From an uncultured Gammaproteobacteria bacterium (GTDB lineage: Bacteria; Patescibacteriota; Microgenomatia; UBA8517; UBA10165), in assembly GCA_964472675.1 (NCBI GenBank), contig CAYYLO010000001.1:21704-85703 (forward strand): DNA of 64,000 bases, written 5' to 3'. Positions 2,483 to 64,000 of this stretch are shown here, piece after piece; position 1 is the first letter of the stretch; each line of letters opens with the position of its first letter. Both the position numbers and the translations under genes were made by a program. The notes under the pieces were generated by a model. That model ran no database searches. It saw only the letters and a program-made list of their open reading frames with translations, and was not told the DNA's origin.

Positions 2483-3559
2483 TTATGAGAGATTGACTAG
2501 TGACTCTTCTTTTTCCTCGCCTGTTGTAATTTTGAAGGTTTTGGAGTTTACTCTAAGACTAATGCCTGCATTCTTTAGCTCTGCGTTAAGCATTATAGCA
2601 ACCAATTCCTCAAACTTTACTTTTGGTTTCCAGCCTAGTTTCCTCTCTGCTTTGCTTGCGTCACCGAGCAATATATCGACCTCTGCAGGTCTGTAATATT
2701 GCGGATCAATTCTAACATAAGACTTCCAATTTAGTCCCGCCAGTTCAAAGGCATACTCCACAAATTCACGTACCGTATGTGTTTCCCCTGTTGCTATAAC
2801 ATAATCTTCAGGTTCGTCTTGCTGAAGCATCGTCCACATCGCCTGTACGTACTCCTTTGCGAAGCCCCAATCTCTTTTAGCATCCAGATTTCCAAGGAAG
2901 AGTTTATCTTGTTTTTTTGCTAAAATATTTACTATGCCAGTAGTAATTTTTCTTGTGACAAAATTTTCCCCACGTCGCGGCGATTCATGGTTAAAAAGTA
3001 TTCCACTACAGGCAAAAATGCCATAAGCTTCGCGATAATTTACTGTCAGGTGGTGTGCCAACACCTTTGCTGCCCCATATGGGCTTCGTGGCATAAACGG
3101 AGTACTCTCGTTTTGAGGAGCAGGTGCCGAACCAAACATCTCACTGCTTGAGGCCTGATAGAATTTAGACTTTAGACCTAAATCTCTGATAGCTTCCAGT
3201 ATTCTCAGGGCGCCTAAACCCACTGTATTGACAGTATATTCTGGAATGTCAAAGCTAATTCTCACGTGACTTTGAGCAGCAAGGTTATAAACTTCATCAG
3301 GTTGTATTTTTTCGAGTAACTTATAGACACTATTTGTATCTGTTAGATCGCCGTAATCAAGATCAAAATTGGGGTTACGCACATGGGAATTAAGATAAAG
3401 GTGATTGATACGGGAAGTATTCATTGAGCTTGATCTTCTAACAATGCCATGTACGCGATAGCCTTTGCGTAGAAGCAGCTCAGAAAGATATGAACCATCT
3501 TGTCCTGTTATGCCTGTAATTAAAGCCGTCTTTTGTCTTGCTTCACCATTCTTTAACAT
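2483..3559 (-). CDS. gmd: GDP-mannose 4,6-dehydratase
   Basis: N-terminal [19 protein letters not shown]ossmann motif, YxxxK SDR-extended signature (SPYGAAK) and NHESPRRG; the whole 358 aa protein is colinear with Gmd. Confidence 0.93.
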
Positions 3560-10539: not shown

Positions 10540-12145
10540 CTTTGAAAGCTATACCCCCGCTTGGAAAGTATATCGTTTTTATTGTGTTAGTGCCGTCCGG
10601 CATTTCATTTGAACTTCCCGCAATTAAACCATTGGGGTATTTTGTTCGTGTCTGGTCCCATGGAGAAACCTCCTGAAAATAATACTTGTCAAAATGTTCA
10701 ACTGTCGAAAATCCGAATATGTCCCGGGGAGTTAACGTGTGTTCTTTTTGGAATTTTGCGGGAGGATATTTGGAATAAAAAAGGAAAAGTATATATGGCT
10801 GATCGTAACGGTTTGTAACGACAACATTTTGATATTTACCTTCATTTTGTTTTACAAAACTTACCAGTTCTTTTACCCCATACTGAGAAGAATAGTCGTA
10901 TGTTTTTGCCATATGCAGGTAATACTCATGGAGATATCGGGAAAAATCCCATAGCATAAATAGTACGATCGCAAACACCCCCAATTTCCCTAACTTTCCC
11001 CATTTCCCCAACACCCCGAAAACCTTTACCGCACCATATCCGCTAATTATCACCAACGGAACAATCATATTCTCCGCCCGCAAAGCATGTGGCGATTGAA
11101 AAGTTAAGGCCGCAGCAACCGGCGCAACTACTAGCCACAGGAGAACAGGCAGCCACCCTTTTGGACTTTTAAAAATTACCCCCATGCCTACAACGAGAAA
11201 GACCAGATCCAACAAATACATCTGACCGAATTCCGGTACTTTATTCCTTTGGATTTCGTCCCCGTTAACAAATAAGAAGTCTCCTGAGAAGTGTTTGCCG
11301 TAATTTTGAGCAAAGGCTAAGCCGTAATTCACGACTTTGTTGTGCAGCAACTTCCCGACTAAACTTTCAGTAACGCCGTGCTCCCCTCTTTGTTGATTCA
11401 CCTTATTGTACGGGCCAACGTCTGCAAACACCCCCACACCCGATGCCCTGGAAATTCCCGCTGGCCCAGCGAGGTCTTTGGCTAGTGGTACTAATAATAG
11501 TAGTCCTACTATTCCAACAGCCAACGAATTTCTCAATTTAGCTCTCCCTAGTAATTCCCTGCGGTAGTAAATAAGTAATCCGCAAACCAATAGAGGCACC
11601 ACAATTCGTGCCGCGTGATATGTATAAAGCGAAGCTACAAGCGCCAACACTGAAACCCAAAGATATTTAGAATTTCTAGTTCCTTTTACAAATGACCAAA
11701 CACCAAGAGTAATAAAGAATGTCGCCGCGTTTACTTCCCAACCGCCGCGCGAAAAGTGTATATGCCAAGGAGAGATGGCTAGCATCAAAGATACTAGAAC
11801 CCCCATTTTTTTGTCTCTGAACAATTCTAAACACAACAAATACACAACAAACACAGTTGCCACACCCAAAGCAGCACCTGGAATTCTCACCGCCCATTCA
11901 TTTAAACCAATAGTTGCCACAAATGGCGCAACGATATAAAAATAAAGTCCTGGTTTGTAATCGTTAAACGATTGAAAATGAATTGGCCAAAAGTTACCAT
12001 GCTCGTCTTTCCCTGTTTGCAACAAAGAATAAGCGTTATAACCAATGGCCGCTTCGTCAGCGTTTAACGCAGGCAAATTGTTCAGTTGATTGAAGCGCAA
12101 AAAAGTCGCCAGAATTATGATAAGAACTATTAAGTATTTACCCAT
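10526..12145 (-). CDS. PMT/GT39-family phospholipid-carrier-dependent glycosyltransferase (GT-C)
   Basis: Loop-1 motif LNADEAAIGYNAYSLLQTGKDEHGNFWPIHFQSFNDYKPGLYFY, about 11 TM helices and a C-terminal soluble domain. Start chosen at MGKYLIV, 1 nt after the upstream stop. Confidence 0.85.
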   Translation of the reverse strand: MGKYLIVLIIILATFLRFNQLNNLPALNADEAAIGYNAYSLLQTGKDEHGNFWPIHFQSFNDYKPGLYFYIVAPFVATIGLNEWAVRIPGAALGVATVFVVYLLCLELFRDKKMGVLVSLMLAISPWHIHFSRGGWEVNAATFFITLGVWSFVKGTRNSKYLWVSVLALVASLYTYHAARIVVPLLVCGLLIYYRRELLGRAKLRNSLAVGIVGLLLLVPLAKDLAGPAGISRASGVGVFADVGPYNKVNQQRGEHGVTESLVGKLLHNKVVNYGLAFAQNYGKHFSGDFLFVNGDEIQRNKVPEFGQMYLLDLVFLVVGMGVIFKSPKGWLPVLLWLVVAPVAAALTFQSPHALRAENMIVPLVIISGYGAVKVFGVLGKWGKLGKLGVFAIVLFMLWDFSRYLHEYYLHMAKTYDYSSQYGVKELVSFVKQNEGKYQNVVVTNRYDQPYILFLFYSKYPPAKFQKEHTLTPRDIFGFSTVEHFDKYYFQEVSPWDQTRTKYPNGLIAGSSNEMPDGTNTIKTIYFPSGGIAFKVVAN

Positions 12146-12146
12146 T

Positions 12147-13820
12147 TTACTTCCAGGAAAGTAGTTCAAAAGCCACACTGTCGTCCGGTCTAGTTATTTC
12201 CTTGTAAATTCCATCCGGTTGTTTTTGGGAAAGTTCGGCAAAAGGAGGATGTTCAGGATCAAAAACTATCAACGTGCCTTTATTGTGTAAGTCCCCTGCG
12301 GTGGCATCCCTAAAGGTAATATTATCTAGCCCGGAAACCAACCCTACATCACCAAATTGCCCTTCCTGGTAGGTTTTTTTGGAAACTTGCTGATATTTTG
12401 CTGGATCATATTTTTGGAAAAAGAGGAAGAAAATGTACGGCTGGTTATAACTTTGTTGAAAAACAATCTGCTTGTAATCATTTTGTTCTTTAGAAGTCTT
12501 CATAATTGTTTGTTTATACCCGTATTGCCAACCTTTAGCACTGCGCAAAGGATAATGTACCCAATATTGATCAAGAAAATACACGTAATTAATTGCGTAA
12601 ATAGCAAGGTAACAAAGCAGCAAGATTGCAAATTTGCGGCCACGAATTGCTTCAAATACAAATGCCACTCCGCATCCACTAAGTAAAGTTAGTGGAATGA
12701 CAAGATTCAGACTTCGCACACCTTGTATAGTATCTCGAGATAAAGCAGCAGGCAGCGGAGCCAGCAAAAGCCAGAGAAGTACAAACCACTTTGCATTTCT
12801 GTTTTGACTTCTTGCCAAATATAATAATCCTAAAATCAGCAACGGCAAGTCCGCCAATAACAAAACGCCAACGTCAGGCGCTCCGTGTCTAGCATTGGCC
12901 CAATCTCCTTCGAAGAACAAGAATCTTGCCGAGTAGTAATTCGTCCACCGGTACAAAACCCCTCGTAAATTGTTCAATGGCTCAGAATGGTAGAGGATAT
13001 ATTGCCAAGAATTTATACCAACTCCTTCCTGGTTTAAAATGCCAGCCACATATTCAACAGGCCTTCTATAGGAAAAAAAACTAAAGACTGCTAACCTTCC
13101 TGCTTGTCCTTGAAAAACGCTTAAGATTATTGGCAATACCAACACAAACCCCAGAATTAAAACTTGTGCTATCTGTTTTCTGGTAAATCTGCCAAGTCGT
13201 TTGCGATACGCCAACAAGAGAGCTGCCACAACCAACGCAGTACTCAATTTGGCCCCCTGATATGTCCAAAGAGTGAGTGCAAAGAAAATAACTGACAGGT
13301 AAATACTTCTGCCCCCGTCTTTAACAAACCGCAAAAATAAATAGATTCCTGCTAAAGTTAACGTCAAAGAAAGATTGGCTTCCCATGCACCTCTGGAAAA
13401 ATGAACATGCCAAGGAGATATTGCAAGCATCAAGCTTGCTAAAATTTTCAATTTTTCGTTCTTGAATAATTCGCCTACTGAACAATAAACAAGTCCTACA
13501 GCGGCAATACCTGCAATAGCACTGGGAAGTCGCACGGACCACTCTGCCAAGCCCAATATAGCTACGAATGGTACTGTTAGGTAGACATAAAGTCCCGGTT
13601 TCCAATCTCCGAATGACTTAAAAATCAGTGGCAGAAGTTCGCCATACTCATCTCTGCCTGTCTTCAAAATTGAATATGCGTTATACCCCAAAGCCGCCTC
13701 GTCACTGGTTAAATGTGGCGGATTAATATCCAGTTGCCAAAAACGCAACAAGGCAGCAACCAACAAGATTGTGACGAGTAACAGGTGATGAGTTATTGGT
13801 GTAACGAGTTTTCTAATCAT
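12147..13820 (-). CDS. PMT/GT39-family glycosyltransferase (GT-C)
   Basis: LTSDEAALGYNAYSILKTGRDEYGELLPLIFKSFGDWKPGLYVY. ATGA start/stop overlap with the upstream gene at 13817-13820. Confidence 0.85.
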   Translation of the reverse strand: MIRKLVTPITHHLLLVTILLVAALLRFWQLDINPPHLTSDEAALGYNAYSILKTGRDEYGELLPLIFKSFGDWKPGLYVYLTVPFVAILGLAEWSVRLPSAIAGIAAVGLVYCSVGELFKNEKLKILASLMLAISPWHVHFSRGAWEANLSLTLTLAGIYLFLRFVKDGGRSIYLSVIFFALTLWTYQGAKLSTALVVAALLLAYRKRLGRFTRKQIAQVLILGFVLVLPIILSVFQGQAGRLAVFSFFSYRRPVEYVAGILNQEGVGINSWQYILYHSEPLNNLRGVLYRWTNYYSARFLFFEGDWANARHGAPDVGVLLLADLPLLILGLLYLARSQNRNAKWFVLLWLLLAPLPAALSRDTIQGVRSLNLVIPLTLLSGCGVAFVFEAIRGRKFAILLLCYLAIYAINYVYFLDQYWVHYPLRSAKGWQYGYKQTIMKTSKEQNDYKQIVFQQSYNQPYIFFLFFQKYDPAKYQQVSKKTYQEGQFGDVGLVSGLDNITFRDATAGDLHNKGTLIVFDPEHPPFAELSQKQPDGIYKEITRPDDSVAFELLSWK

Positions 13821-16800
13821 TGCTTCTCAAGAATGATAAAAGCCGGATCTCCATTCAAGAAGCGGATAGTTTTCAGTTGCTTAAAATCGGGAGGAAAATT
13901 CCCTGGACTGGTGACGAGAAGAGTTTTACCATCTATCGGTATTTTTAGCCCACTCTCCACCCGCCACTCTCCACCCGCCACTTTTGGCATATCCCAATCG
14001 TTAACAAAATAGAACTTATCAAACCGGTCTATCCAAAACCAATCAGACTGGGCAAACCGCACAAGGTTGGTGTCTTTTTGGTAAGCGGCTGGATCCCAGG
14101 GCCAGTAGAAAAGCAAAAACTCATGCGGTTCGCCATATTTTTTAGTAATAATAAATCGGTCATATTCTCCATAACAAGCTTTTATGTAATCCGCGATATT
14201 TTGATATCCATATTGCCAAGACCAAGAGTAGTTTCTGCTGTAAACAAAGAAGTATTCATACATGTACTTACCCATATTGACAAATAACAATGTGGCGTAA
14301 GCTGTTAATGCGAATGCTTTCCACCTGCGGCTAATTTTTGTTGCTAGCCATATTACCCCAATTGCCGAAATAAGTTGAGGAATAGGCAACATAGAAGCAG
14401 AACGCAAAACTGCAAATTTTTCGTTAGTAATACTTGCAGGAATCGGTGCCAAGAGCAACCACAACAAAACTAACTGATACGCCTTCTCTTTTTTAGTCGC
14501 CCTCCATGCAACCAGTATCAGGCCAATGTAGAAAAAGGGTAAGTTAACCGGATAAAGGAGTCCCCAACCCGGAACGCTAAATTGATATTGCGTACCGCCT
14601 TTAAAAAATAAAAACTGCGGTGAAAAGTAATCCGCATAGTTTTTGGTAAACTTCTCAACAAAGTAAACAGGACGATTGTAGAAAAGACGAGCTAACCCTG
14701 GAGGTAATTTACTTTCCTCGCGCGCATTCACAATGCGGTTTATTGCACCCTGGTCAACCAAAAAAACCCAATTGGCACGTGCCCTTGCCTCAGAATTAGA
14801 CAAGATAAACGGAAGCGGCACAAAAAAAACAGCTAAAATGACAAGGGAAATGATCCCAAGTAAACGTTTGTGTTTGAAAAAATTAAAAAGTTCACGCCGG
14901 TAGATTATAAAAAGGGCAAGCAAAAAAAATGGAGTGAAGATTCTGGTTGTGTGGTAAGAAAAAAGAGTTAGCCCAAAAGCCAAAAACGAAAGCGGAAATT
15001 TGCCATTTACAAAAAGAGCAGCCGCTGTAGTTAAGAAAAACACCGATAAATTTGATTGTAAAACAAACCGCGAAGGGAAAAAGAGCCATGGGTCAATTGC
15101 CACAAAAAATGTGCCAAACAGACTTATGTCTTTCCTTTTAGTAACTCCAAAAAAAACAAAGTAGGATGAAATTATCGTTAAAGTTCCCAAGAGAACATGC
15201 GGCAAGCGGATGGCAAACGCATTAAGACCAAGAAACTTGATAAAAGGTATGGTCAAATAGAGGTTGAGAGGAAGGGGGTAGTCTCCATAGGCTCTAAAAT
15301 TTGTGATCGGAAAGAATTCCCCCCACTCGTCCTGGCCGGTTTTTAAAATAGAGTAAGCATTCCATCCATGACTTACTTCATCCCAGTTTAGACTTGGCGG
15401 TATTTGAGTAATCCCTGCAAACCTTAAAACAAACCCCAACAAGACAATAACTATTAATAACCAATATTTCTTATACACAGTTGAAGAGATCTTTGATCTT
15501 TTATGCCACATATTTTTCTTTACGAAAAACAATAATCCGATCGCTGCCGCAACACTAATAGCATTACCCCAAGTTCTTGCTGGAGTATCAGTAAATCTTA
15601 ATATTGCTTCTTTTTCACCGCTCAGAGCGGGAAGTTGTGCTGTTATTAATCCCAAATCTCCCGAAGGAACAACCGAGTACTCTTTTGATTCTGTAAACAA
15701 ATGCCAACCAGGAAAATAAACTATCGGAAACTGAACTGTGGCAGGTGAAGTAAGTGTTAACTTGTATTTTACCTCATTGCTCTTCTTTAAGACTTGTGCA
15801 CCAAAAAACCTGCCGTCTGCCGAAGGTTGCGAAGGAGCCGGACTTGCCGGAAGTTGGGAAGCTGTTGCAGGCCAATAATCTCCTAAAGATGACGCGGTCT
15901 GTTCTTCCCATTTTTTCCCTGCAAACTGGTCTTTATCTGTAATGTTGTACCACATATCCTCCTTAAAAAAAGAAAAGTTCACAAGGATCACGATGACAAT
16001 AGCAGTTGCACTAATCCACAGAGGAAATCGCCTGGAAACGAACACTATAGCTCCAGAAGCCAGCGCAAAACTGAAGGTTGCGATAGAAAGCCAACGCCAC
16101 GGAAATTGAAAATATGACGTAAATTTGAGGCTTTCCCAAATAGGTGTCGACTTATTGTGTGTTAGAAACAAAGCCAGCCAACCAATTAAAACTAACACCA
16201 AAATGTCTTTAAGTTTTTCTTTTTGGCGAGTTATTAACAGGCATACCAGTGCTATCAAAGGCAATACCCACTGCACTTGCCCCACAGATAAACTTAAATC
16301 ATCTTGAGGACCAAAAAGTGAAGCGCCATACCCCCAAAATCTTGAAATTAAAAGTTGGTTCAATGTGGCAAAATGTGCCCTAAAATCAAAATAACCAATG
16401 GTGATCGATTCCAAGTTTACATATTTGGACTCCGACACCACAGGTAGTAGATAAAATGCACTAAGTGCTAACGCCAAAACCCCTCCACCAACTAGCCAAG
16501 GAATCTTACTGTAGTTTTTCCTTTCCACAATTTTACATCCCAACCATACTCCCAAGAAAAGCCCAAACATTAGAAGCGACAGGTTGTGTGTCAGCAACAG
16601 CAGAGCAAGGCTGACACTAAACCACAAAAGACTTTTGATCTTGCCCCCATGAAGAAAGTTATAAGCAAAGAGCGCAATAAAAGGGAAAAGTGCAAAAGCA
16701 AAAGCTTCGGGCAAAGCTGCCCGAACCCAAACATCAAGAGCTCGATATGGCGCGTATACATAAACCATGCTGCTCACCAATGCCGCATATTTATACGAAG

Positions 16801-17173
16801 TTGAAGAGGAATTCTGATTCTTCTGATTTCCCCAAACCCTTAAAGAGAGCAAATACATACCTAAAGCAGATCCAATAATCGAGAGAATAAACACTACCTT
16901 GGTGGAATCAATAATTTGCATTCCCAGCAAGTGGAATACTTCGCCTACTGCGTAAGGTATTTGCGTGTAAAAGTTAAACAAAGGTTCACCATACCCAAAA
17001 CCAGCGTCGGGAGCCCAGCGACAAGGGATTTGGAAGTCCTTTATACAGCGATCAAACTCAAACAAACGGAATAAATGCGGGTCCTGCATGGAATATATCC
17101 CTGGCCGGAGCATCCTAAAAAAAGCGGGGATTGTGAGAACAACAACAAACAACAAAAAGAAATATTTTCTCAT
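13817..17173 (-). CDS. Fusion protein: N-terminal YfhO-like/PTPS-related GT-C module (about aa 1-554) plus C-terminal PMT/GT39 module (about aa 555-1118)
   Basis: N-half is colinear with the stand-alone 52578..54464 protein (DFQIPCRW...PLFNFY...; C-terminal FPGWHLF ~ FPGWKVF). C-half from MWHKRSK (ATG at 15511) carries LNWDEVSHGWNAYSILKTGQDEWGEFFPI and the full PMT architecture. One uninterrupted 3357-nt ORF. Confidence 0.8.
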   Translation of the reverse strand: MRKYFFLLFVVVLTIPAFFRMLRPGIYSMQDPHLFRLFEFDRCIKDFQIPCRWAPDAGFGYGEPLFNFYTQIPYAVGEVFHLLGMQIIDSTKVVFILSIIGSALGMYLLSLRVWGNQKNQNSSSTSYKYAALVSSMVYVYAPYRALDVWVRAALPEAFAFALFPFIALFAYNFLHGGKIKSLLWFSVSLALLLLTHNLSLLMFGLFLGVWLGCKIVERKNYSKIPWLVGGGVLALALSAFYLLPVVSESKYVNLESITIGYFDFRAHFATLNQLLISRFWGYGASLFGPQDDLSLSVGQVQWVLPLIALVCLLITRQKEKLKDILVLVLIGWLALFLTHNKSTPIWESLKFTSYFQFPWRWLSIATFSFALASGAIVFVSRRFPLWISATAIVIVILVNFSFFKEDMWYNITDKDQFAGKKWEEQTASSLGDYWPATASQLPASPAPSQPSADGRFFGAQVLKKSNEVKYKLTLTSPATVQFPIVYFPGWHLFTESKEYSVVPSGDLGLITAQLPALSGEKEAILRFTDTPARTWGNAISVAAAIGLLFFVKKNMWHKRSKISSTVYKKYWLLIVIVLLGFVLRFAGITQIPPSLNWDEVSHGWNAYSILKTGQDEWGEFFPITNFRAYGDYPLPLNLYLTIPFIKFLGLNAFAIRLPHVLLGTLTIISSYFVFFGVTKRKDISLFGTFFVAIDPWLFFPSRFVLQSNLSVFFLTTAAALFVNGKFPLSFLAFGLTLFSYHTTRIFTPFFLLALFIIYRRELFNFFKHKRLLGIISLVILAVFFVPLPFILSNSEARARANWVFLVDQGAINRIVNAREESKLPPGLARLFYNRPVYFVEKFTKNYADYFSPQFLFFKGGTQYQFSVPGWGLLYPVNLPFFYIGLILVAWRATKKEKAYQLVLLWLLLAPIPASITNEKFAVLRSASMLPIPQLISAIGVIWLATKISRRWKAFALTAYATLLFVNMGKYMYEYFFVYSRNYSWSWQYGYQNIADYIKACYGEYDRFIITKKYGEPHEFLLFYWPWDPAAYQKDTNLVRFAQSDWFWIDRFDKFYFVNDWDMPKVAGGEWRVESGLKIPIDGKTLLVTSPGNFPPDFKQLKTIRFLNGDPAFIILEKQ
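13937..13980. repeat. Tandem 14-mer (cactctccacccgc x2 plus a partial unit) within the PMT-module coding sequence
   Basis: ccactctccacccgccactctccacccgccact; encodes AGGEWRVESG. Confidence 0.6.
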
Positions 17174-18840
17174 TGTGTACTAACTAACCAAATAGCGTCC
17201 TGGCCATTGGGAAATTTGATCTTCTCGACAACATTTGCATTTGAAGAAAACTCGTTAGATTTTCCTATCAAAAGCGTATCTTTTTTGCCAAAAGCCTTAG
17301 AGTCAATACTTGTAAAATTATACTTACCCAAACTGTAATCTCCCAATTGGTCTACAAAGGAACGCCCCTCTGTTTTGTATCTCAGCCAATCTTGAGCTTG
17401 TTTTTGGTAATCTGCCGGATCCCATTTCTTGTAAAAGGCCATATAGATTTGCGGCTCTGATAAAGAGCGGCTAAAGACAACTTGGGAATATCTACTGTCA
17501 ATTGCTGAAGTTAGTTCAACGGCTTGTTTTCTACCATAAAGCATGGCCTGGGCCTGATCCCGCGGCGCGTGGTAATAATAGTCTTCCAAAAAGAATCCTA
17601 AACTCACCAACAATATAGCAATATAACTATATAGCAGTAATTTTTTTGATACTCGCCATTTCTGAGAAATTAAATCCAGCAAAACTAAGGCACCATACGC
17701 AGATAATATTTGTAAGGCCGGCATCATTACCGCCACTCGATTCCCCGCATACCCTGGGCCCTTTGTTAAAGCAGCGGGTATTGGCGCAATCAAAATCCAA
17801 ATTATTAACAATTTAAGGGGTCCCCTTGCCGAGCCTGCAAGGGGACCCCTTGCAAAGATCGACCACAATGAAACAAGTATAAAAGGCAGTTCAACCAGGT
17901 AAAGAACTCCTCTGCCGGGAATCATGCCGTAAGTCCACTCGCCTGCCCCTTGAGTAAACAAAAACTGGGGCGAAAAATAGGAGAGATATCTTTGAGAAAA
18001 TTCCTTAAACACATAAACTAGTTTGTTCGAGAAAATTCTTTCTATAACGTCTGGCACTCCGGCCAAAACTGCCTCATACCGCCTGTCGGCAAGGTTCGCC
18101 CAGTTGTCTGTAGGATTAAAAATTGCAATATCCGATCCGCGGCCTCCCGCCCCAGAAAAAAGCATCGTATAAGCGGCAACGGCAATAAAGACAGCCAACA
18201 CAGCAATAGCTATTCCATACTTCCTTCCCGCCTTAAAGTGCAATAGCAAAGTGCGGCGATCCCACAATAATAAAAGGATAATAAGTGGAGTAAATAATCT
18301 TGCAGAGTGGTAACTAAAGAGATTCAAGCCAAAAGCCAAGGCAGCTACTGCCATCCAACGGGGTTTTTCCAAACCTTTGTAAAACGCCCATACTCCAAGC
18401 GGCATAAAAAATGTCGTCAGGTTTGCCTCGAAAGCGCCGCGGGAAAGTGAAATGTGCCATGGCGATACAGCCAGCAGCCAAGCTGCTAAAATTTCCAATT
18501 TCGATCCGCCGAAGAGCCCTTTAACCATCAAATAAGTGGCGAGTATAGCTAGTGTTCCAAAAACAGCACTAGGGAGTCTCACAGCAAATTCATTAAGTCC
18601 AAATATTGCTACCGAGGGAATTGCTAGATAGGTATATAGCGGAAGTTTATAATCCCCAAAAGACTGCAAAGTTAGAGGAAGAAAGCTACCCCACTGATCT
18701 TTGCCGGTTTTCAAGATTGAGTACGCGTCATAACCAAAAGAGGCCTCATCAGGGGTAAAACCTGCAGGGTGGGAGACAAGGCCAATAAAACGCAAAACAA
18801 AAGCCATCAAAATTATTCCAACCAAGACCACACGGCGCAT
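17170..18840 (-). CDS. PMT/GT39-family glycosyltransferase (GT-C)
   Basis: FTPDEASFGYDAYSILKTGKDQWGSFLPLTLQSFGDYKLPLYTY. ATGA overlap with the downstream gene start at 17170-17173. Contains the palindromic in-frame insert ARGPLAGSARGPL. Confidence 0.85.
   Translation of the reverse strand: MRRVVLVGIILMAFVLRFIGLVSHPAGFTPDEASFGYDAYSILKTGKDQWGSFLPLTLQSFGDYKLPLYTYLAIPSVAIFGLNEFAVRLPSAVFGTLAILATYLMVKGLFGGSKLEILAAWLLAVSPWHISLSRGAFEANLTTFFMPLGVWAFYKGLEKPRWMAVAALAFGLNLFSYHSARLFTPLIILLLLWDRRTLLLHFKAGRKYGIAIAVLAVFIAVAAYTMLFSGAGGRGSDIAIFNPTDNWANLADRRYEAVLAGVPDVIERIFSNKLVYVFKEFSQRYLSYFSPQFLFTQGAGEWTYGMIPGRGVLYLVELPFILVSLWSIFARGPLAGSARGPLKLLIIWILIAPIPAALTKGPGYAGNRVAVMMPALQILSAYGALVLLDLISQKWRVSKKLLLYSYIAILLVSLGFFLEDYYYHAPRDQAQAMLYGRKQAVELTSAIDSRYSQVVFSRSLSEPQIYMAFYKKWDPADYQKQAQDWLRYKTEGRSFVDQLGDYSLGKYNFTSIDSKAFGKKDTLLIGKSNEFSSNANVVEKIKFPNGQDAIWLVSTQ
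17815..17851. repeat. Perfect 15-bp inverted repeat with 7-nt spacer inside a PMT coding sequence
   Basis: aaggggtccccttgc-cgagcct-gcaaggggacccctt; encodes ARGPLAGSARGPL, an ~10-aa insertion relative to the paralogs (e.g. KSPKGW in 10526..12145). Confidence 0.8.
18488..18503. repeat. Additional copy of the GGAAATTGGAAATT motif (complement strand) inside PMT gene 17170..18840
   Basis: aaaatttccaatttcg, encoding SKLEIL; the same 14-mer as at 9081, 9133 and 55974. Confidence 0.65.
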
Positions 18841-34357: not shown

Positions 34358-35233
34358 TTAATTTTTGATATTTGAGTTTCTTTGAAGCTCATAGAGCTTC
34401 GCATAAGTTACAAACCTGCTCCACATTTGATAAACGCCATACAAAATCCCTTCCGTGCCATCCAAAATACCACCCATAACGACCAAACGGTACCACAACT
34501 CTTGTGACATGATTCTTGCAAATCTCCACCACGCCATTGGAGGGTGATTGGCCTTAAAAAGAAGTTTTGCCTCAAAAACTGAATACCTGTTTGTTTTTTC
34601 TATCATGTCCGAAAGAGAATCTTCTTTGTGGTGAATTAGCGCGTTTGTAAGTGTTCCTACTTCCCCATTAATAACCGGTTGTTCATGGAGCTCGCCTTCC
34701 CAGCAAACAAGCGCCTCTTTTTTCATCAGCCGCAAAACATAGTCCGGCCAAAACCCACCATGCTTTAACCACCTTCCAAACACGTGATTTTTGCGGGGTA
34801 TCTTATAAGCGTACAAGGAACTATCAAGTGCACGGGTGGCGGGAGCGGAGGGAGTCCCACCGAGTGACCGCAGGGAGCCTGCGACCGAGGACGTCGGGTG
34901 GGACGAGCTCCCGACAGGACCCGAAGCAGGTGGTTTGACAGAACCTACAATATACTGAATTTCTTTAGCTAACTCTTGGGTCACTTCCTCGTCATAATCA
35001 ATATAAAACAACCAGTCGCCCTGAGCATGTTTTGCCGCTTCGCCGCGCCATACTGCAAAGTTGTTTCCTTTGCTGTTAACAATTTTTGCCCCGTATGTTT
35101 TGGCGATTTTTATTGTGTCGTCCATTGAGCCGGTATCTAAAATCACTATTTCGTCGGCTAGCTTTTTAACAGAGTCTAAACACTGTTCTATTTTGCTTTG
35201 GGCATTTTTGGTAATAACAAGAACGGATAACAT
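34358..35233 (-). CDS. GT2-family glycosyltransferase carrying an in-frame GC-rich low-complexity insertion
   Basis: MLSVLVITKNAQ...ILDTGSMDDT...IDYDEE GT-A core; paralog of 36156..37115 (shared SVKKLADEI). Contains a ~38-aa Ser/Gly/Pro-rich insert (PASGPVGSSSHPTSSVAGSLRSLGGTPSAPA) absent from the paralog. Confidence 0.8.
   Translation of the reverse strand: MLSVLVITKNAQSKIEQCLDSVKKLADEIVILDTGSMDDTIKIAKTYGAKIVNSKGNNFAVWRGEAAKHAQGDWLFYIDYDEEVTQELAKEIQYIVGSVKPPASGPVGSSSHPTSSVAGSLRSLGGTPSAPATRALDSSLYAYKIPRKNHVFGRWLKHGGFWPDYVLRLMKKEALVCWEGELHEQPVINGEVGTLTNALIHHKEDSLSDMIEKTNRYSVFEAKLLFKANHPPMAWWRFARIMSQELWYRLVVMGGILDGTEGILYGVYQMWSRFVTYAKLYELQRNSNIKN
34831..34933. repeat. GC-rich (~70% GC) imperfect-palindromic element, copy A, inserted in-frame in a GT2 gene
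   Basis: About 80% identical to 53829-53952. Arms gggagtcccac (34850-34860) and gtgggacgagctccc (34898-34912) are inverted complements; it encodes the extra peptide that is absent from the paralog. Confidence 0.75.
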
Positions 35234-45105: not shown

Positions 45106-45548
45106 AGAAAATCTCCTGCCTCTCCGCCGCCAATTTCCAATATGTATCGTAGACTTCTTCCCTTACCTTCATACTAAGTTAGAGTACCACACATAAGAAT
45201 CAGCCTCTCAATAGAGTAAAATTACGAAGTTACTTTTATGCCTACAACACACAGGGCGGAGCATGCATGCATTTTTATGATGGATAAAAATTATCAACAA
45301 GAAAATGGGCAAGATTTGGGACATTTGCAACAAAAAATACTTCACTCGAAGCAATCCGCTTGAACTATCCACTTAAGGAAGTGCGAACTTCGCACGTCTC
45401 ATTAAGCGAACTGCTGTAAGTGAAGTATCCGGTCCTGCCCCTACCCAAACGTATGCTTGGAACGCGCGCCGGACGGCGACAATTCGGAAACGGAATCTTT
45501 GTGTTTATATTATACCTCACATAGCAACATGTCACAATATACCAACAC
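45106..45548. promoter_or_regulatory. Long (~440 nt) non-coding region upstream of the AbrB-like/R-M module
   Basis: No convincing ORF (the minus-strand 45365..45799 ORF lacks any motif). Contains hairpin gtgcgaacttcgcac and -10-like TATATTATAC / TACAAT-like hexamers near 45500-45545. Confidence 0.3.
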
Positions 45549-51319: not shown

Positions 51320-52447
51320 TTACCTGATAAGATGCCTAAATTGTCTGTATACGTACTTCAAGCGGTTTAGTTGCACAAAATCCACAAACTGATCTATGGC
51401 GCCAAGATGATACTTAAGACGCATTATGGGAGCCGTAGCTTTTCTTTTTTTTATATACTGCTCGTAGATTTTCGTATAGACTGCATACCCATGAGGCAGA
51501 CTAAAAGGCCTAACTGAAAAATTTTTAATCCTTGTTTGTATAGGTTTTGTAACCTTGAGTTCGTTGTGTTTTTTAGCTATTATTTCGTAAGCTTTTACCA
51601 GATACTTCTCTCTTTGCTGCCAACTATCCAAATGGACAGTTTTCAAAAAAAGCGGCTTTAGAGATTTGAAAGACTCAAGCCTTGAGAACATTGAGCCAAA
51701 CCATTTGGGATAAGGAATATATTTTTTTTCTATTAAAAAACAAAGCTCTATAAGGTCTTCAACTATTTGCGTAGCTATAATATTTGACCCCAATTCGTCT
51801 CCAACTTCACCAGTTCTAAACATAAACGCTTCCCTGTCACCAATTTTTCCCCATTGCCGGAAATAAATATAAATCCAAACCCGATCCGGATAGTAAGAAA
51901 ACTTTTTCCGCACCCTTTCAATGCCAATCCCGTCATAGTAAATTTCGCCACTTGTTATTTCAAGAAGTGCCTGTTGGGGGAACGTAAGCCAATCACGAAA
52001 AGATGGTTTTTCGTATGGATTAAAATCAAGATAATGCTGGAAAAATGACTTAGCGGTCCAAAAGGAAAAAAGGTGGTTGACTTCGCCTCGAGTCTTGTAT
52101 GCAGGTATATGCTTTAAGTAGCCAGGCTGTTCTTTCGAAAAATTAGTAGAAAAACCGCGGAAAGTTAGGGGGAGCTTTTGGCGAAGCATCTTGTCCACCT
52201 TATCTTTATAACGGTCAAAATCTTTCTCTTTAAAAAATATATGAAGGCGAGGTCCCCAATCGTGGTCTGTTGACCGGACCGTATCAAGCCCTAACACGTC
52301 TGAACCATGCCCCACCAGCCCCGCAGAGTAGGAAAGGTGGGGAAATTCCCGCTTGATTAAAGGACCAACTACTTCCTCATAAAAGAGCCTGTTTAGCCTC
52401 AAGCCGAGAATGAAAGAAGGTTTTTCCAAAACACCGTTCTTAGGCAC
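51320..52447 (-). CDS. Nucleotidyltransferase-domain protein with a DUF4037-like C-terminal domain
   Basis: GLVGHGSDVLGLDTVRSTDHD fits the Pol-beta-type NTase GS...D.D motif, followed by a ~250-aa helical domain. The DUF4037 assignment is from memory of the domain architecture. Confidence 0.45.
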   Translation of the reverse strand: MPKNGVLEKPSFILGLRLNRLFYEEVVGPLIKREFPHLSYSAGLVGHGSDVLGLDTVRSTDHDWGPRLHIFFKEKDFDRYKDKVDKMLRQKLPLTFRGFSTNFSKEQPGYLKHIPAYKTRGEVNHLFSFWTAKSFFQHYLDFNPYEKPSFRDWLTFPQQALLEITSGEIYYDGIGIERVRKKFSYYPDRVWIYIYFRQWGKIGDREAFMFRTGEVGDELGSNIIATQIVEDLIELCFLIEKKYIPYPKWFGSMFSRLESFKSLKPLFLKTVHLDSWQQREKYLVKAYEIIAKKHNELKVTKPIQTRIKNFSVRPFSLPHGYAVYTKIYEQYIKKRKATAPIMRLKYHLGAIDQFVDFVQLNRLKYVYRQFRHLIR

Positions 52448-52577: not shown

Positions 52578-54464
52578 TCACATGAAGCGGGTCTTGATAG
52601 TTTTACTAGTTTCTTTTGTTCTTGTTTTGCTAGGACTTTTCGTGGCACGGAAAGGCACAAACGTCACAAGAATTGGGGTAGCAGCAAGCCCTACCCAAGA
52701 AATAAGCGAAATTACATTGCCTACGGTTCTAGCCTCTGTGTTATAAAGACGAGCTGCAACTTCGTGTTCTCCCTTAGACAAGTCAACATGCATCCGCCCC
52801 CACTCGTCCTGGTTTAACAACACAGAGACTTCCTTGCCATCCACAAAAACTTTCCAGCCTGGGAACTTGAAAATGTTTATGCGCACAACGCCATTATCCT
52901 CATCTTGAGCTACTTTGAATTTTGCCCAGTTGGAGCCTTGAGAAGCATCACTAATTTGCCCCTTACCTGAAACTGCCTCGGCAACAGTTTTTTGCGGCGC
53001 TTTGGGAGCAGCTGAAGCATCTTTTGGCAAATAATCGTATATTCCGGCAGTTTGTTGCAAATCCCAGGCAGCACCTGAGAATTTTTCCTGGTCAGTTAAG
53101 GGGCCCATTTTTTCAGGTTTAAAAAACTGCCAGTTCCAACCAATAACCACCGCAATCAAGACAAAAACTACCCACTTGGCTATTTTGGGATACGTCTTGG
53201 TCAATAAAACTGTACTTGTCCCAGCCACAACAGAGAAGGAAAGCACGGCCAAAGTCAGGAAACGCCAGGGAAACTGTACAAAAAGCAGGGGAGGTATTTG
53301 TTGCCAGATAAACGTCGACTTAACATGAGCCATAAAAGTCGCAAACCAACCCGACAAAAAGAAAAACATGGTCACCAGGACCAGTTCATTGTTGATTTTC
53401 CGACGCTTCAGCAACTTCCATCCCAAAAATAAAACTACGACAATTGCCAATATCCAATGAATTTGCCCGACGGGGAAAGCCATCTTGTCATCTGCGTCTG
53501 CCCAGGCGGAGGGGCCATATCCCCAAAAGCGGCTGGTTAAAAGCTGGCGAATATTGGCAAAATGGGCAACATACTCGTAGTAACCTTGTGTTAAAGTCTC
53601 TACATGTACAAGTTTCTGTTCCAAAAAAACCGGCAAAGTAAAAAATGCGCTCAGCCCAAAAGCCCAGGCACCGCTTATTGCCAAATTGGGGACAGACCTC
53701 CAAGCTTTGTATTTTAATATCCAAATTAAAAGCCAGGCTAAAAAGAGGGGAGTGAAAATTAAAACCATAAGATTGTGCGACGTAAGCAACGCGAACCAGG
53801 CTAAGGCCAGAACCAAAAGCCATCTTGACGGGTGGCGTGGGCGGAGGGAGTCCCACTGAGCCCCCGCAGTCTCGCCAAAGGCGGACGAGGAGGTCGAGTG
53901 GGACGAGCCCGCGACAGGACCCGTCATCCCCGTGGCAGGACCCGAAGCAGGCATAGAACTCTTTATTAATCTGTAACCAGACCACAAAATTAGCGGGAAC
54001 CAAACTAGCGACCAGGCCTCATTCATCGCCCCACGCACATAAATATCAACAGAATGATACGGTGCCCAAATATAAAAAGCGGCAGACAAAAGACCGCCAA
54101 GACGCCCAAAGAATTCACGGGCAAAAATATACATGGTTACACCGCTTATTAAGAAAGACAGAAGAAACGTCAGCTTTACAGTCGTTACAAATGAAAATTG
54201 AAAAAGCCTGAATACCTCCCCCACTAAATAGGGGAGAGGCGGATAAAAATTAAAAAGAGGAAAACCGTAACCGTACCCCATATATTGCGTCCAACGGCAG
54301 GGAATTTGAAAGTCAGCAAAACACTTCTCCATCGCCAGTTGCCTCATCATCTGGAGATCATCATGCATTAAAAAATAGCCGGGGCGCAGAAGCCACCAGC
54401 CAGCCAAAAGTCCAAGCCCAAGCACAAGATAAAAATAAGGATCACTACGGCGCAGAAGGTTCAT
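52578..54464 (-). CDS. YfhO-like/PTPS-related GT-C membrane protein carrying an in-frame GC-rich insertion
   Basis: Colinear with the N-half of the 13817..17173 fusion protein (FADFQIPCRW, PLFNFYPPLPY) and with the YfhO C-terminal beta-sandwich (FKFPGWKVFVDG...GEHEVAARLY). Contains a ~45-aa SGPT-rich insert (MPASGPATGMTGPVAGSSHSTSSSAFGETAGAQWDSLRPRHPSRW). Confidence 0.65.
   Translation of the reverse strand: MNLLRRSDPYFYLVLGLGLLAGWWLLRPGYFLMHDDLQMMRQLAMEKCFADFQIPCRWTQYMGYGYGFPLFNFYPPLPYLVGEVFRLFQFSFVTTVKLTFLLSFLISGVTMYIFAREFFGRLGGLLSAAFYIWAPYHSVDIYVRGAMNEAWSLVWFPLILWSGYRLIKSSMPASGPATGMTGPVAGSSHSTSSSAFGETAGAQWDSLRPRHPSRWLLVLALAWFALLTSHNLMVLIFTPLFLAWLLIWILKYKAWRSVPNLAISGAWAFGLSAFFTLPVFLEQKLVHVETLTQGYYEYVAHFANIRQLLTSRFWGYGPSAWADADDKMAFPVGQIHWILAIVVVLFLGWKLLKRRKINNELVLVTMFFFLSGWFATFMAHVKSTFIWQQIPPLLFVQFPWRFLTLAVLSFSVVAGTSTVLLTKTYPKIAKWVVFVLIAVVIGWNWQFFKPEKMGPLTDQEKFSGAAWDLQQTAGIYDYLPKDASAAPKAPQKTVAEAVSGKGQISDASQGSNWAKFKVAQDEDNGVVRINIFKFPGWKVFVDGKEVSVLLNQDEWGRMHVDLSKGEHEVAARLYNTEARTVGNVISLISWVGLAATPILVTFVPFRATKSPSKTRTKETSKTIKTRFM
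53829..53952. repeat. GC-rich imperfect-palindromic element, copy B, inserted in-frame in a YfhO-like GT-C gene
   Basis: Arms gggagtcccac (53846-53856) and gtgggacgagccc (53898-53910); same orientation as copy A; the peptide it encodes is absent from the paralogous module in 13817..17173. Confidence 0.75.
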
Positions 54465-62839: not shown

Positions 62840-62949
62840 ACTCCTGTCGCGTGAATATCTTTTGCTTTCTCACAACTTAAAGCTTAATATATCCCAGAGC
62901 CATTTGAAGCTCGCTCGCACCATTAATTTACACAAAGGAGGTCTTGCGC

Positions 62950-63666
62950 ATGGCAAACAGACAAGTCAGGATAGCGGTGGCACTGGATGTGCCATCGCTT
63001 TTGAGCGCCCACCGACTCGTGGCTGAACTCAAGCCACATGTCGACTACTTCAAGGTAGGTCTGCAACTGCTCCACTCAGAAGGAACTCCGAGCGTCCTGC
63101 GTGTTCTACAAGGAGAAGGTGCCCGACTGATGGTGGACTGGAAGCTGCATGACATTCCGGAAACTGTCAAGCTCGCAGCCGAAGCCATCAGACAGTACAA
63201 CGTCGCCTACTTCAACTTGCACGCAACCACCGGACGCGCATCCATTTCTGCCGCCATCACCGCACGGGGTGGAAGCAAGGTCATGGGCGTTACCGTCCTG
63301 ACTTCGCTGGACGATGCGGAATGCACAGAGATCTTCGGGGCAGCAGCAGACATCAAGGTCCCGCAGTTTGCGCGTACTTTCGTGTCGCTCGGCGGCCACG
63401 CCATCATCTGCTCCGCCAAAGAGGCACAGCTTCTGCGCAGCATGCGCGAGCTTGACTCCGCGGAACTCTGGACTCCCGGAATCCGACCCGTCTGGGCTGC
63501 AGCCGGAGACCAGAAGCGAGTGCTCTCGCCCGCCGATGCAGTCCGCGCTGGAGCAGACGTCTTGATCATCGGTCGCCCGATTACTCAACCGCCAGGCGAG
63601 ATCGGAAGCCCCGTCGAGGTCACAAAGCGCATCCGCGCTGAGATCGAGGAAGCGCTAGCCGCTTAG
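62950..63666 (+). CDS. pyrF: Orotidine-5'-phosphate decarboxylase
   Basis: IAVALDVPS and the catalytic VDWKLHDIPETV (DxKxxDIP) motif; strong AAAGGAGG SD 8 nt upstream of ATG 62950 (track shows a TTG at 62944). GC about 60%, versus ~39% for the rest of the window. Confidence 0.85.
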   Translation: MANRQVRIAVALDVPSLLSAHRLVAELKPHVDYFKVGLQLLHSEGTPSVLRVLQGEGARLMVDWKLHDIPETVKLAAEAIRQYNVAYFNLHATTGRASISAAITARGGSKVMGVTVLTSLDDAECTEIFGAAADIKVPQFARTFVSLGGHAIICSAKEAQLLRSMRELDSAELWTPGIRPVWAAAGDQKRVLSPADAVRAGADVLIIGRPITQPPGEIGSPVEVTKRIRAEIEEALAA

Positions 63667-63678
63667 GGAGGAAGTGTC

Positions 63679-64000
63679 ATGGTTATTGCGGCAACAGACA
63701 GATGCTTGCCAGAGAAGGCAGTACTTTTACACCTGAGACAAGCTGGCGCAGTCCTGACAGACGATCACTTCGTCTACACGTCAGGAAGGCACGGCAGCGC
63801 CTACGTCAACAAGGACGCTGTATATCCTGATGCGGGACTTGCCAACGGCCTCTGTATCGACATCGCTCGCCACTTCCAAGATGCAGAAGTGCAAACAGTG
63901 GTGGGAACCGAGCACGGCGGCATCATCCTGCAATTCGCCACTACCTGGAACTTGCGGATGCAGACTGGTCGCCAGATCAGCGGTGTATACGCAGAAAACG
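63679..64000 (+). CDS. pyrE: Orotate phosphoribosyltransferase-like (type I PRTase), 3'-truncated by window end
   Basis: HFVYTSGRHGSAYVNKD parallels PyrE's FTLKSGRKSPYFFN hood region. GGAGGA SD precedes the ATG; GC-rich like pyrF; runs off the window. Confidence 0.55.
   Translation, partial: MVIAATDRCLPEKAVLLHLRQAGAVLTDDHFVYTSGRHGSAYVNKDAVYPDAGLANGLCIDIARHFQDAEVQTVVGTEHGGIILQFATTWNLRMQTGRQISGVYAEN

Follow-up and report, generated by a model that had tools for sequence, protein, structure and literature searches.

How does a long GC-rich palindrome come to lie in frame within the gene of a membrane enzyme? The question is raised by a 64,000-nt stretch of contig CAYYLO010000001.1 (assembly GCA_964472675.1, forward strand, positions 21,704 to 85,703), which we call the window and which comes from a bacterium placed by GTDB in the Microgenomatia. 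An earlier note on this DNA described two copies, A and B, of a palindromic element and located copy B at 53829-53952, within the gene for a 628-aa YfhO-like protein. We find that copy B is one of 28 distinct copies of a strongly covarying hairpin repeat. Our best explanation is that it belongs to a family of non-autonomous, selfish "coding palindromes" of ~95-115 nt and ~70% GC in Microgenomates-type bacteria of the candidate phyla radiation (CPR), namely Candidatus Blackburnbacteria and relatives. We hold this explanation to be probable, and the more general statement, that copy B is selfish repeat DNA, non-autonomous and tolerated within a loop, to be very likely.

Copy B is an in-frame insert in a GT-C glycosyltransferase gene

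The following features of the window define copy B, its host gene and an insert-free relative of the host:

52578..54464, minus strand: host gene of copy B, 628-aa GT-C-fold membrane glycosyltransferase
53826..53957, minus strand: 44 extra codons (SMPASGPATGMTGPVAGSSHSTSSSAFGETAGAQWDSLRPRHPS), host residues 170-213, delimited by translation, the orthologue gap and low model confidence
53828..53924, plus strand: copy B hairpin core, 97 nt, a long imperfect hairpin whose "forward" orientation is the window plus strand
53925..53951, plus strand: copy B 3′ extension, CATCCCC-GTGGCAGGACCCG-AAGCAGG, with the AAGCAGG tail common to copy A
13817..17173, minus strand: paralogous GT-C module without the insert, in a 1118-aa open reading frame (ORF); the equivalent site, ...GGKIKSLLWFSVSLALL..., lies at ~16,600-16,640

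The inserted DNA is 132 nt long and ~70% GC, compared with a genome and window background of ~40% GC, and it adds 44 in-frame codons to a host ORF that stays open throughout. In the sense of the gene the reading is ...WSGYRLIKS-SMPASGPATGMTGPVAGSSHSTSSSAFGETAGAQWDSLRPRHPS-RWLLVLALAWFALLTSHN..., and the host residues on either side are ...YRLIKS and RWLLVLALAWF..., with RW belonging to the host. The location given by the earlier note was right, while the boundaries of the extra coding DNA move to 53826-53957. The core is laid out as ACGGGTGGCGTGGGC-GGAGGGA-GTCCCACT...AGTGGGAC-GA-GCCCGCGAC-AGG-ACCCGT and scores 102.4 bits against the covariance model R1 (E = 8.7e-21, match 53825-53927, 70% GC). 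Folded as RNA, copy B reaches -63.5 kcal/mol; as single-stranded DNA its z-score is -3.9, and none of 200 shuffles folds equally well. Both strands of the element fold well as RNA and as single-stranded DNA, with z-scores for copy B of -3.9 and -3.3 in the latter case. A 31-nt piece of copy B has no second match in the window at up to three mismatches (0 expected).

The 21 nt that copy B had been said to carry in excess of copy A are present (gtcatccccgtggcaggaccc, 53923-53943), and their source is a direct partial duplication of copy B's own 3′ end, GACAGGACCCG / TCATCCCC / GTGGCAGGACCCG. The same 3′ structure is found in the orthologous copy of locus L002, and locus L062 carries an analogous end duplication, CGGGTCCTGCCGC-GGGATGTGA-CGGGTCCTGCC. 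A second, partial 3′ end follows several members of the family (copy B and L002, copy A and L005, L037, L047 and L062).

The host protein matches PTPS_related and YfhO in Pfam, in both cases below the curated cut-offs. An AlphaFold model built with 115 homologues is confident overall, with a predicted local distance difference test score (pLDDT) of 87.2 and a predicted template modelling score of 0.89. Its best matches among solved structures, as ranked by Foldseek, are STT3, AglB, PglB, AftA and ArnT, which indicates a GT-C fold. Like other GT-C enzymes the protein has multiple transmembrane (TM) helices and an acidic motif in the first external loop, here an invariant H34-D35-D36 after TM1. 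The GT-C fold of the "YfhO-like" protein is thus upheld, with YfhO itself remaining a sub-threshold match.

Within the model, residues 170-211 form a coil of low confidence (pLDDT 47-61) between helices 147-169 and 212-229, which agrees with the proposal that the element sits between two TM helices. For copy B, the one copy to which this comparison was applied, placement in a loop is compatible with the fold, since a low-pLDDT coil interrupts an otherwise confident model. Positive clusters of the host lie at residues 116-121, 168/214, 251-256, 350-356 and 422-430 and in the C-terminal tail, and two invariant cysteines accompany the HDD motif. From the sequence, we infer an N-terminus (RR) on the inside and the HDD motif and the two cysteines on the outside. 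The insert would then lie in the TM4-TM5 loop, probably on the cytoplasmic side, given the positive-inside rule and the way GT-C enzymes are usually laid out. The earlier note had raised the question of a disordered extracytoplasmic loop; the disorder stands, but the cytoplasmic side is the more likely one. The 44 residues contain no intein blocks. They most likely have no role in catalysis, and the insert is presumably neutral for the host.

The insert was added to a gene that ordinarily lacks it. BLASTP of the host against the 1118-aa paralogue (34% identity, E = 6e-92) opens a 41-residue gap exactly at the insert, as expected from the insert-free paralogue that had been reported. Among 120 orthologues of the host (50-83% identical), 115 have only 2-4 residues at this position, and one insert-free orthologue is 95.6% identical in DNA to a carrier. 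Copy B therefore lies in a coil, rather than in a conserved helix shared, with its insert, by all homologues.

Copy B belongs to a dispersed family of covarying hairpins

The family was collected with the pattern GGAGGGAGTCCC-N (gap)-GGGACGAGC in one-genome-per-species contigs and in metagenome contigs. The pattern matched 21 loci in the former set (15 of them family members) and 37 in the latter (23 family members). All 38 family loci have the full element architecture and flanks of 35-53% GC, whereas the remaining 20 matches are chance occurrences in DNA of 59-77% GC without the other motifs of the element. Removal of duplicates left 28 distinct copies. The informatively named carriers are Candidatus Blackburnbacteria, Candidatus Microgenomates or Patescibacteria; several other carrier metagenome-assembled genomes (MAGs) bear generic or apparently wrong labels. 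Copy number is two in the window and at least five in one Blackburnbacteria MAG (MHBW01). A covariance model from the family copies added two further diverged copies in the collected loci, and a scan of viral contigs found none. A chance origin of the element is excluded, since the family recurs in dozens of independent assemblies.

Read on the window plus strand, the consensus of the 5′ half is (G)ACGGGTG-R-C-nnnn-GC / GGAGGGA / GTCCCnn / CGAG-CGmCCGCAG / variable apex, followed in the 3′ half by CGAGGAC-GTCG / nnGGGAC / GA / GC-nnnn-G-R-C / AGG / ACCCGT(C). It forms one long hairpin of three helices with a 7-nt/2-nt asymmetric internal loop (GGAGGGA/GA), a 3-nt bulge (AGG) and an apex that varies in length and sequence. 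RNAalifold predicts 25 pairs, 13 of which have compensatory double changes. In a 29-pair structure, 92.9% of cells are paired, a share that falls to 33-44% once the partners are displaced by 1-3 columns, and 93 cells carry double changes, compared with 28 ± 5 in shuffles (0 of 500 shuffles reach 93). Between copy B and its orthologue in L002, for instance, GTCCCAC/GTGGGAC becomes GTCCCGT/ACGGGAC. No variation is seen in the unpaired motifs. The search pattern partly forces this for GGAGGGAGTCCC and GGGACGAGC; for GGGTG, CGAG, GTCG and CAGGACCC it does not.

The element has no match in Rfam 15 at the gathering threshold, and at E ≤ 10 it meets only a spurious miRNA hairpin (E = 4.1). GGCGGAGGGAGUCC and CGACAGGACCCG resemble regions CR-I and CR-V of RNase P RNA, and CAGGACCCGAAGCAGG resembles signal recognition particle (SRP) RNA; both ideas were dropped because neither an RNase P nor an SRP model reached E ≤ 10. 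At the protein level, a profile of 19 peptide sequences had no match at E ≤ 0.01 among 5.8 billion proteins, and phmmer with the 44-aa insert found only two multi-stretch, low-complexity proteins among 1.84 billion representatives. This census failed because the peptide is too short and compositionally biased.

Copy A, the related copy reported earlier, was recovered in the window both by local blastn (~34832-34930) and by R1 (90 bits at 34829-34927):

34832..34924, plus strand: hairpin core of copy A, oriented like copy B
34925..34946, plus strand: copy A 3′ extension, AGCAGGTGGTTTGACAGAACC, with a second, degenerate GACAGRACC motif
34358..35233, minus strand: host of copy A, a 291-aa GT2 glycosyltransferase

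With its 3′ extension, copy A reaches ~34946. The cores of A and B are 78.5% identical and differ by small indels, so that A and B do not share a reading frame over the second half of the translated insert. The Pfam GT2 match of the copy A host stops at the insert, whereas the neighbouring paralogue matches straight through. The extension agrees at nearly every base with that of L005, which lies in a different host gene; it must therefore be part of the repeat unit in this subfamily. In the window R1 found only A and B as copies, and no further match was better than E = 0.5. The other GC-rich places there (11408-11491, 52245-52326 and 63201-63682) are not element copies by blastn or R1.

Several smaller palindromes or unusual arrangements were seen. 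In L013, two copies (3022-3115, plus strand; 3118-3215, minus strand) lie head-to-head, 2 nt apart, inside one ORF for a 1014-aa membrane protein; one of the pair is among the two diverged copies added by the covariance model. At 17813-17853 of the window, a near-perfect 41-nt GC-rich palindrome, AAGGGGTCCCCTTGC-CGAGCCT-GCAAGGGGACCCCTT, matches R1 weakly (E = 0.57). It lies in frame in a loop of a GT-C (PMT_2-like) gene (17170-18840, minus strand) and encodes ...FARGPLAGSARGPLKL...; it may be a relic left by internal deletion or else belong to another family of hairpins inserted in frame. L062 carries, at ~3349-3387 (nt ~1577-1616 of the P0020 gene), a GC-rich palindrome of 39 nt, CGACCCGCCCGCAGCGTCTGAGCGCAGCTCTGGCGGGCT, that is also inserted in frame. 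It is missing from the 95.6%-identical P0035 gene, its flanks are perfectly conserved and a TAG may be duplicated. The long variants L009, L012 and L061 have a similar apex module, CCCGCC...GGCGGG, and the apex of the large element may therefore be a nested mini-hairpin element.

Copies are kept only in frame or between genes

We called a copy well embedded when at least 40 open codons lie on each side of it. By this measure 23 of the 28 copies are well embedded, and all 23 keep the host frame, with no stop codon in it; counting a further copy that is cut by a contig end and looks intragenic, ~24 of the 28 lie within genes. In 19 of the 23 the gene is on the minus strand of the element, in one codon phase, and in the other four it is on the opposite strand, in two phases. 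The commonest frame encodes the peptide xxGPVGSSSRPTSS...AGARRDSLRxRHPS, with nine invariant positions. At least 10 unrelated host families were identified, and the copies are placed as follows:

Glycosyltransferase hosts: GT-C (two types), GT2 and GT4
Other hosts: arginyl-tRNA synthetase (ArgRS); topoisomerase I (two different sites); RecF; Fpg; 5′-3′ exonuclease
Further hosts: RNase HII (four lineages); two proteins without a Pfam match
Intergenic copies (4 of 28): one that exactly fills the murC/murB spacer; one before an ABC ATPase gene; one downstream of typA; one downstream of a GT2 gene
Additional diverged copy of L006, found by the model: intergenic, after an ABC permease gene

We conclude that retention is limited to copies that preserve the frame or are intergenic. 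Because most copies lack stops in 4-5 of the 6 frames, such elements will give rise to false ORF calls. In the window, a 171-aa ORF with a TTG start (53488-54003, minus strand) overlaps the copy B host gene in another frame and crosses the stop-free GC-rich element; this ORF is almost certainly spurious.

The element turns over among relatives, and different variants fill the same loops

The carriers among the GT-C orthologues fall into three separate clades of the distance tree, formed by the window with P0001 and P0002, by P0013 with P0020, and by P0049. P0020, which is filled, and its sister P0035, which is empty, are the pair with 95.6% DNA identity over the gene. The P0049 copy keeps both ends and has lost the core motifs; with P0145, P0163 and P0148 it makes up the decayed or internally deleted copies, and decayed copies stay in frame. 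The GT2 family gives a similar picture, with ~113 of 120 orthologues empty, one full copy at the same site and only ...SRHPS-type remnants in others. The strongest sign of recent spread comes from copy A, which is 98.9% identical, including ~7 nt to the left and 22 nt to the right of the hairpin, to the L005 copy in the ArgRS gene of MHBW01, a genome whose GT-C orthologue has ~82% protein identity to that of the window.

The same loop can also hold different occupants. At the GT-C site, copy B and L002 share variant and orientation, and L001, the tree sister of L002, has a different variant on the opposite strand. We considered an intragenic inverton for the orientation in L001; the L001 variant is 81.9% identical to copy B and has no end duplication, which points to replacement rather than a simple flip. 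Further variants fill the loop in the GT-C orthologues of L009 and L062. At the GT2 site the window has the "A" variant and MHBW01 another, with further variants in L024, L020 and P0135. Four lineages carry a copy at the RNase HII site, two in each orientation (L010 and L041 opposite to L023 and L053). These data show gain, replacement, decay and loss of the element over times comparable to those in which species diverge. The reused loops could reflect either a few permissive sites that are hit repeatedly or an occupied site that attracts re-insertion or conversion.

A separate insertion was seen in L062 (5133-5603), where 470 nt of AT-rich DNA with a 96-aa ORF lie between PMT_2 and Polysacc_synt genes; it is not present in the 94%-identical L063.

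A selfish, folded element is the most probable explanation

A selfish coding palindrome would account for these observations in the following way. New copies would arise at many places in very gene-dense genomes, and those that persist would be the ones that keep the host frame, bring no stop codon and encode, in that frame, a hydrophilic Gly/Ser/Pro/Arg-rich peptide tolerable in a surface loop. Copy B would have landed in the short, probably cytoplasmic, TM4-TM5 loop of a GT-C glycosyltransferase and, given the constraint on frame, would be translated as a disordered 44-residue extension. The element itself is under selection for its fold and its unpaired motifs (the GGAGGGA/GA loop, the AGG bulge, CGAG...GTCG and CAGGACCC). 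If the hairpin transposition of REPIN/RAYT and IS200/IS605 is taken as a model, the element would be moved by a structure-specific transposase acting on single-strand DNA, and the 3′-terminal partial duplications would be traces of repeated rounds of excision and re-insertion where a copy already sat. We put forward only tentatively the idea that the folded single strand is moved by a trans-acting enzyme that recognizes the fold and the invariant unpaired nucleotides.

A number of results weigh against a selfish mobile element. No transposase and no parent insertion sequence lies beside any copy in the collected loci, and tblastn of E. coli RayT against 550 kb, consisting of genome fragments only, found nothing better than E = 0.2 and no RAYT/Y1 homologue. 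The flanks of the 28 copies and the filled/empty pair have no target-site duplication or target motif beyond a G...C extension of the stem, and the only inverted terminal sequence is the 6-9-bp outer stem (ACGGGT...ACCCGT). The P0020/P0035 junctions are not clean, and their flanks have diverged in a loop that is hypervariable in any case. Copy number is apparently low, genera with no more than 55-60% identity between their host proteins share a conserved core, and the loops are invariant, in part through ascertainment by the search pattern. Counts of G-U and A-C mismatches (27 and 22, respectively) favour neither strand as the folding one, apart from one invariant G.T. Finally, the strong orientation bias relative to transcription would, together with the conservation, also fit a functional RNA or DNA motif.

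Rather than being only a decaying passenger, the element might be the substrate of an unrecognized, structure-specific DNA (or RNA) system in CPR that repeatedly re-targets the same permissive loops, either as a homing-like, "site-reusing" system or as a domesticated motif marking DNA-metabolism and glycosylation genes. We consider this unlikely. If true, a site-reusing system would explain the variants and both orientations at single GT-C, GT2 and RNase HII sites, the terminal footprints beside full copies and the near-identical copies in different genes of diverged genomes, and it would imply a new kind of enzyme.

The main rivals to a selfish coding palindrome are a cis-acting role as RNA and spread by recombination. 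The element could act as an RNA structure in host mRNAs and operon spacers, bound by a protein or an RNase and affecting stability, processing, localization or translation pausing, with the peptide as a side effect. Such a role would fit the orientation shared by 19 of the 23 intragenic copies relative to their host genes, the invariant unpaired motifs in covarying stems, a core kept across genera and the intergenic copies inside operons. Frame alone, however, explains the bias of orientation and phase equally well, because it determines whether the peptide is tolerable. Both orientations occur even at the same orthologous site, as in copy B and L001 or at the RNase HII site, the hosts have no functional link, and 115 of 120 orthologues manage without the element. 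The symmetry of the G-U pairs between strands and the lack of any Rfam match of note at E ≤ 10 also argue against a cis-acting RNA, and we regard it as improbable.

Alternatively, the element could spread mainly by homologous recombination or gene conversion in a homing-like manner, with filled alleles copied into empty ones and resident copies overwritten. Different variants in the same loop of orthologues (copy B and L002 as opposed to L001, L009 and L062 at the GT-C site, and likewise at the GT2 and RNase HII sites) are expected under this mechanism, as is the unusual partial end duplication shared by copy B and the distant L062. Between P0020 and P0035, the ~25 nt beside the insert also differ much more than the remainder of the gene does; however, this loop is generally hypervariable, and divergence is as high in other loops of these loci. 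Copies in unrelated genes, such as the 98.9% identical pair in GT2 (copy A) and ArgRS (L005), cannot arise by recombination, and no homing endonuclease is associated with the element. We regard recombination as improbable as the main route of spread.

Two remaining alternatives are very improbable. A lineage-specific disordered linker or low-complexity loop, selected as protein and inherited vertically with an incidental palindrome, would suit the recognizable peptide and its nine invariant positions, but the same DNA is read in at least three combinations of frame and orientation, copy A shifts frame halfway, copies on both strands and between genes cannot constitute a protein-level module, base-pair covariation is a nucleic-acid constraint and sister orthologues lack the insert. 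An intervening sequence that is intron-like, bypassed or otherwise removed, leaving a mature protein without the 44 residues, would suit a compact, highly structured insert in essential genes, but a sequence removed from RNA or protein would not need to be in frame and would not occur between genes: the 23 embedded copies are all in frame and stop-free (by length alone, a chance of ~(1/3)^23), decayed copies are still in frame and Rfam gives no ribozyme or intron match.

Other features of the window

Nearly all genes of the window are on the minus strand. Positions 1-62000 of the window are mostly one long, largely minus-strand glycosylation gene cluster, which includes several GT-C (PMT_2/YfhO-like) and GT2 paralogues as well as the 1118-aa protein, which joins two GT-C-like modules. 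The only Rfam match of the window at the gathering threshold is a DUF3800-IX RNA motif (45427-45497, minus strand; 41 bits, cut-off 36.8); in the related contig L001, DUF3800 proteins adjoin a type I restriction-modification locus. A compositional island at 62944-64000 comprises a pyrF-like ORF (62944-63666, plus strand) and the start of the next gene, at ~59-63% GC. It may have been acquired horizontally. At the equivalent edge of the locus, L001 and L002 have genes for orotidine monophosphate decarboxylase and a phosphoribosyltransferase.

Relation to known repeats

The closest known counterparts are the Rickettsia palindromic elements RPE-1 to RPE-10, reportedly described by Ogata et al. 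in 2000 and 2002. According to PMC10969869, RPEs are palindromic repeats that occur in frame in many unrelated genes, where they encode a conserved peptide, and roughly half of them are intragenic. Both kinds of element are dispersed palindromes of ~100-150 nt in small genomes, lie between and unusually often inside unrelated genes, stay in frame with a conserved peptide in a preferred frame, are presumed to occupy surface loops without loss of function, and decay. The present element differs in its CPR/Patescibacteria rather than alphaproteobacterial hosts, in being ~70% GC in a 40% GC genome, and in its one long hairpin, whose asymmetric loops do not vary and whose stems covary very strongly. 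It is also more often intragenic (~24 of 28, as opposed to roughly half in the same source), and the same orthologous loop can hold different variants in both orientations. Sequence homology to RPE-1 to RPE-10 is very unlikely, on a comparison made by host and composition rather than with the RPE sequences. The element is nevertheless a coding palindrome of the RPE kind, that is, a dispersed hairpin repeat, in frame in unrelated genes, with a preferred frame and orientation.

REPINs are ~100-nt hairpins with conserved arms, a variable apex and common compensatory changes (PMC3116915). REPINs and REPs are considered to be mobilized by RAYT transposases (PMC3116915, PMC3337134), and asymmetric excision leaves a short terminal footprint (PMC3116915). 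Intragenic GTAG/CGTC REP dimers encode 20-30 residues, "many within replication and repair genes" (PMC3733652). Our element shares the hairpin, the variable apex and the compensatory changes, its 3′-end partial duplications may parallel the excision footprint, and its hosts likewise include topoisomerase I, RecF, Fpg, RNase HII and the 5′-3′ exonuclease. In contrast, REPs and REPINs are overwhelmingly extragenic and number hundreds per genome, while this element is predominantly intragenic. The REP end tag is an unpaired GTAG/CGTC (PMC3733652), whereas here GTAG does not occur and CGTC/GACG is confined to paired stems. The arms are not copies of a recognizable self-palindromic REP unit, and the 550 kb of genome fragments yielded no RAYT.

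Yeast mitochondrial GC clusters in var1 are GC-rich hairpin repeats in an AT-rich genome. Other organellar hairpins also invade AT-rich, compact genomes and are sometimes translated, as in the sponge RHE (PMC2800124) and the coding palindromes of Nematomorpha mitochondria (PMC6649704); being organellar, unrelated in sequence and of other length classes, they resemble our element by analogy only. [quoted passage not shown] By definition, MITEs have terminal inverted repeats that match a parent insertion sequence, as well as target-site duplications; for our element we found neither of the two. Full-text searches of the literature turned up no account of an element like this one from CPR, Patescibacteria or Microgenomates. 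It appears to be an undescribed family of a kind already known, unusually intragenic and structurally well defined; the recurrent reuse of the same sites is beyond current models.

Significance

Genomes of CPR/Patescibacteria are small and gene-dense, and few repeats are believed to occur in them. A mostly intragenic hairpin repeat indicates how selfish DNA can persist with almost no intergenic space. The elements remodel protein loops of essential enzymes, among them topoisomerase I, RecF, RNase HII, ArgRS and cell-envelope glycosyltransferases. By breaking Pfam domain matches, as in GT2, and creating spurious overlapping ORFs, they can mislead the annotation and alignment of CPR proteins. 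A covarying hairpin with invariant asymmetric loops also provides a bait for finding the mobilizing enzyme, and the same question has stood for the RPEs of Rickettsia since 2000.

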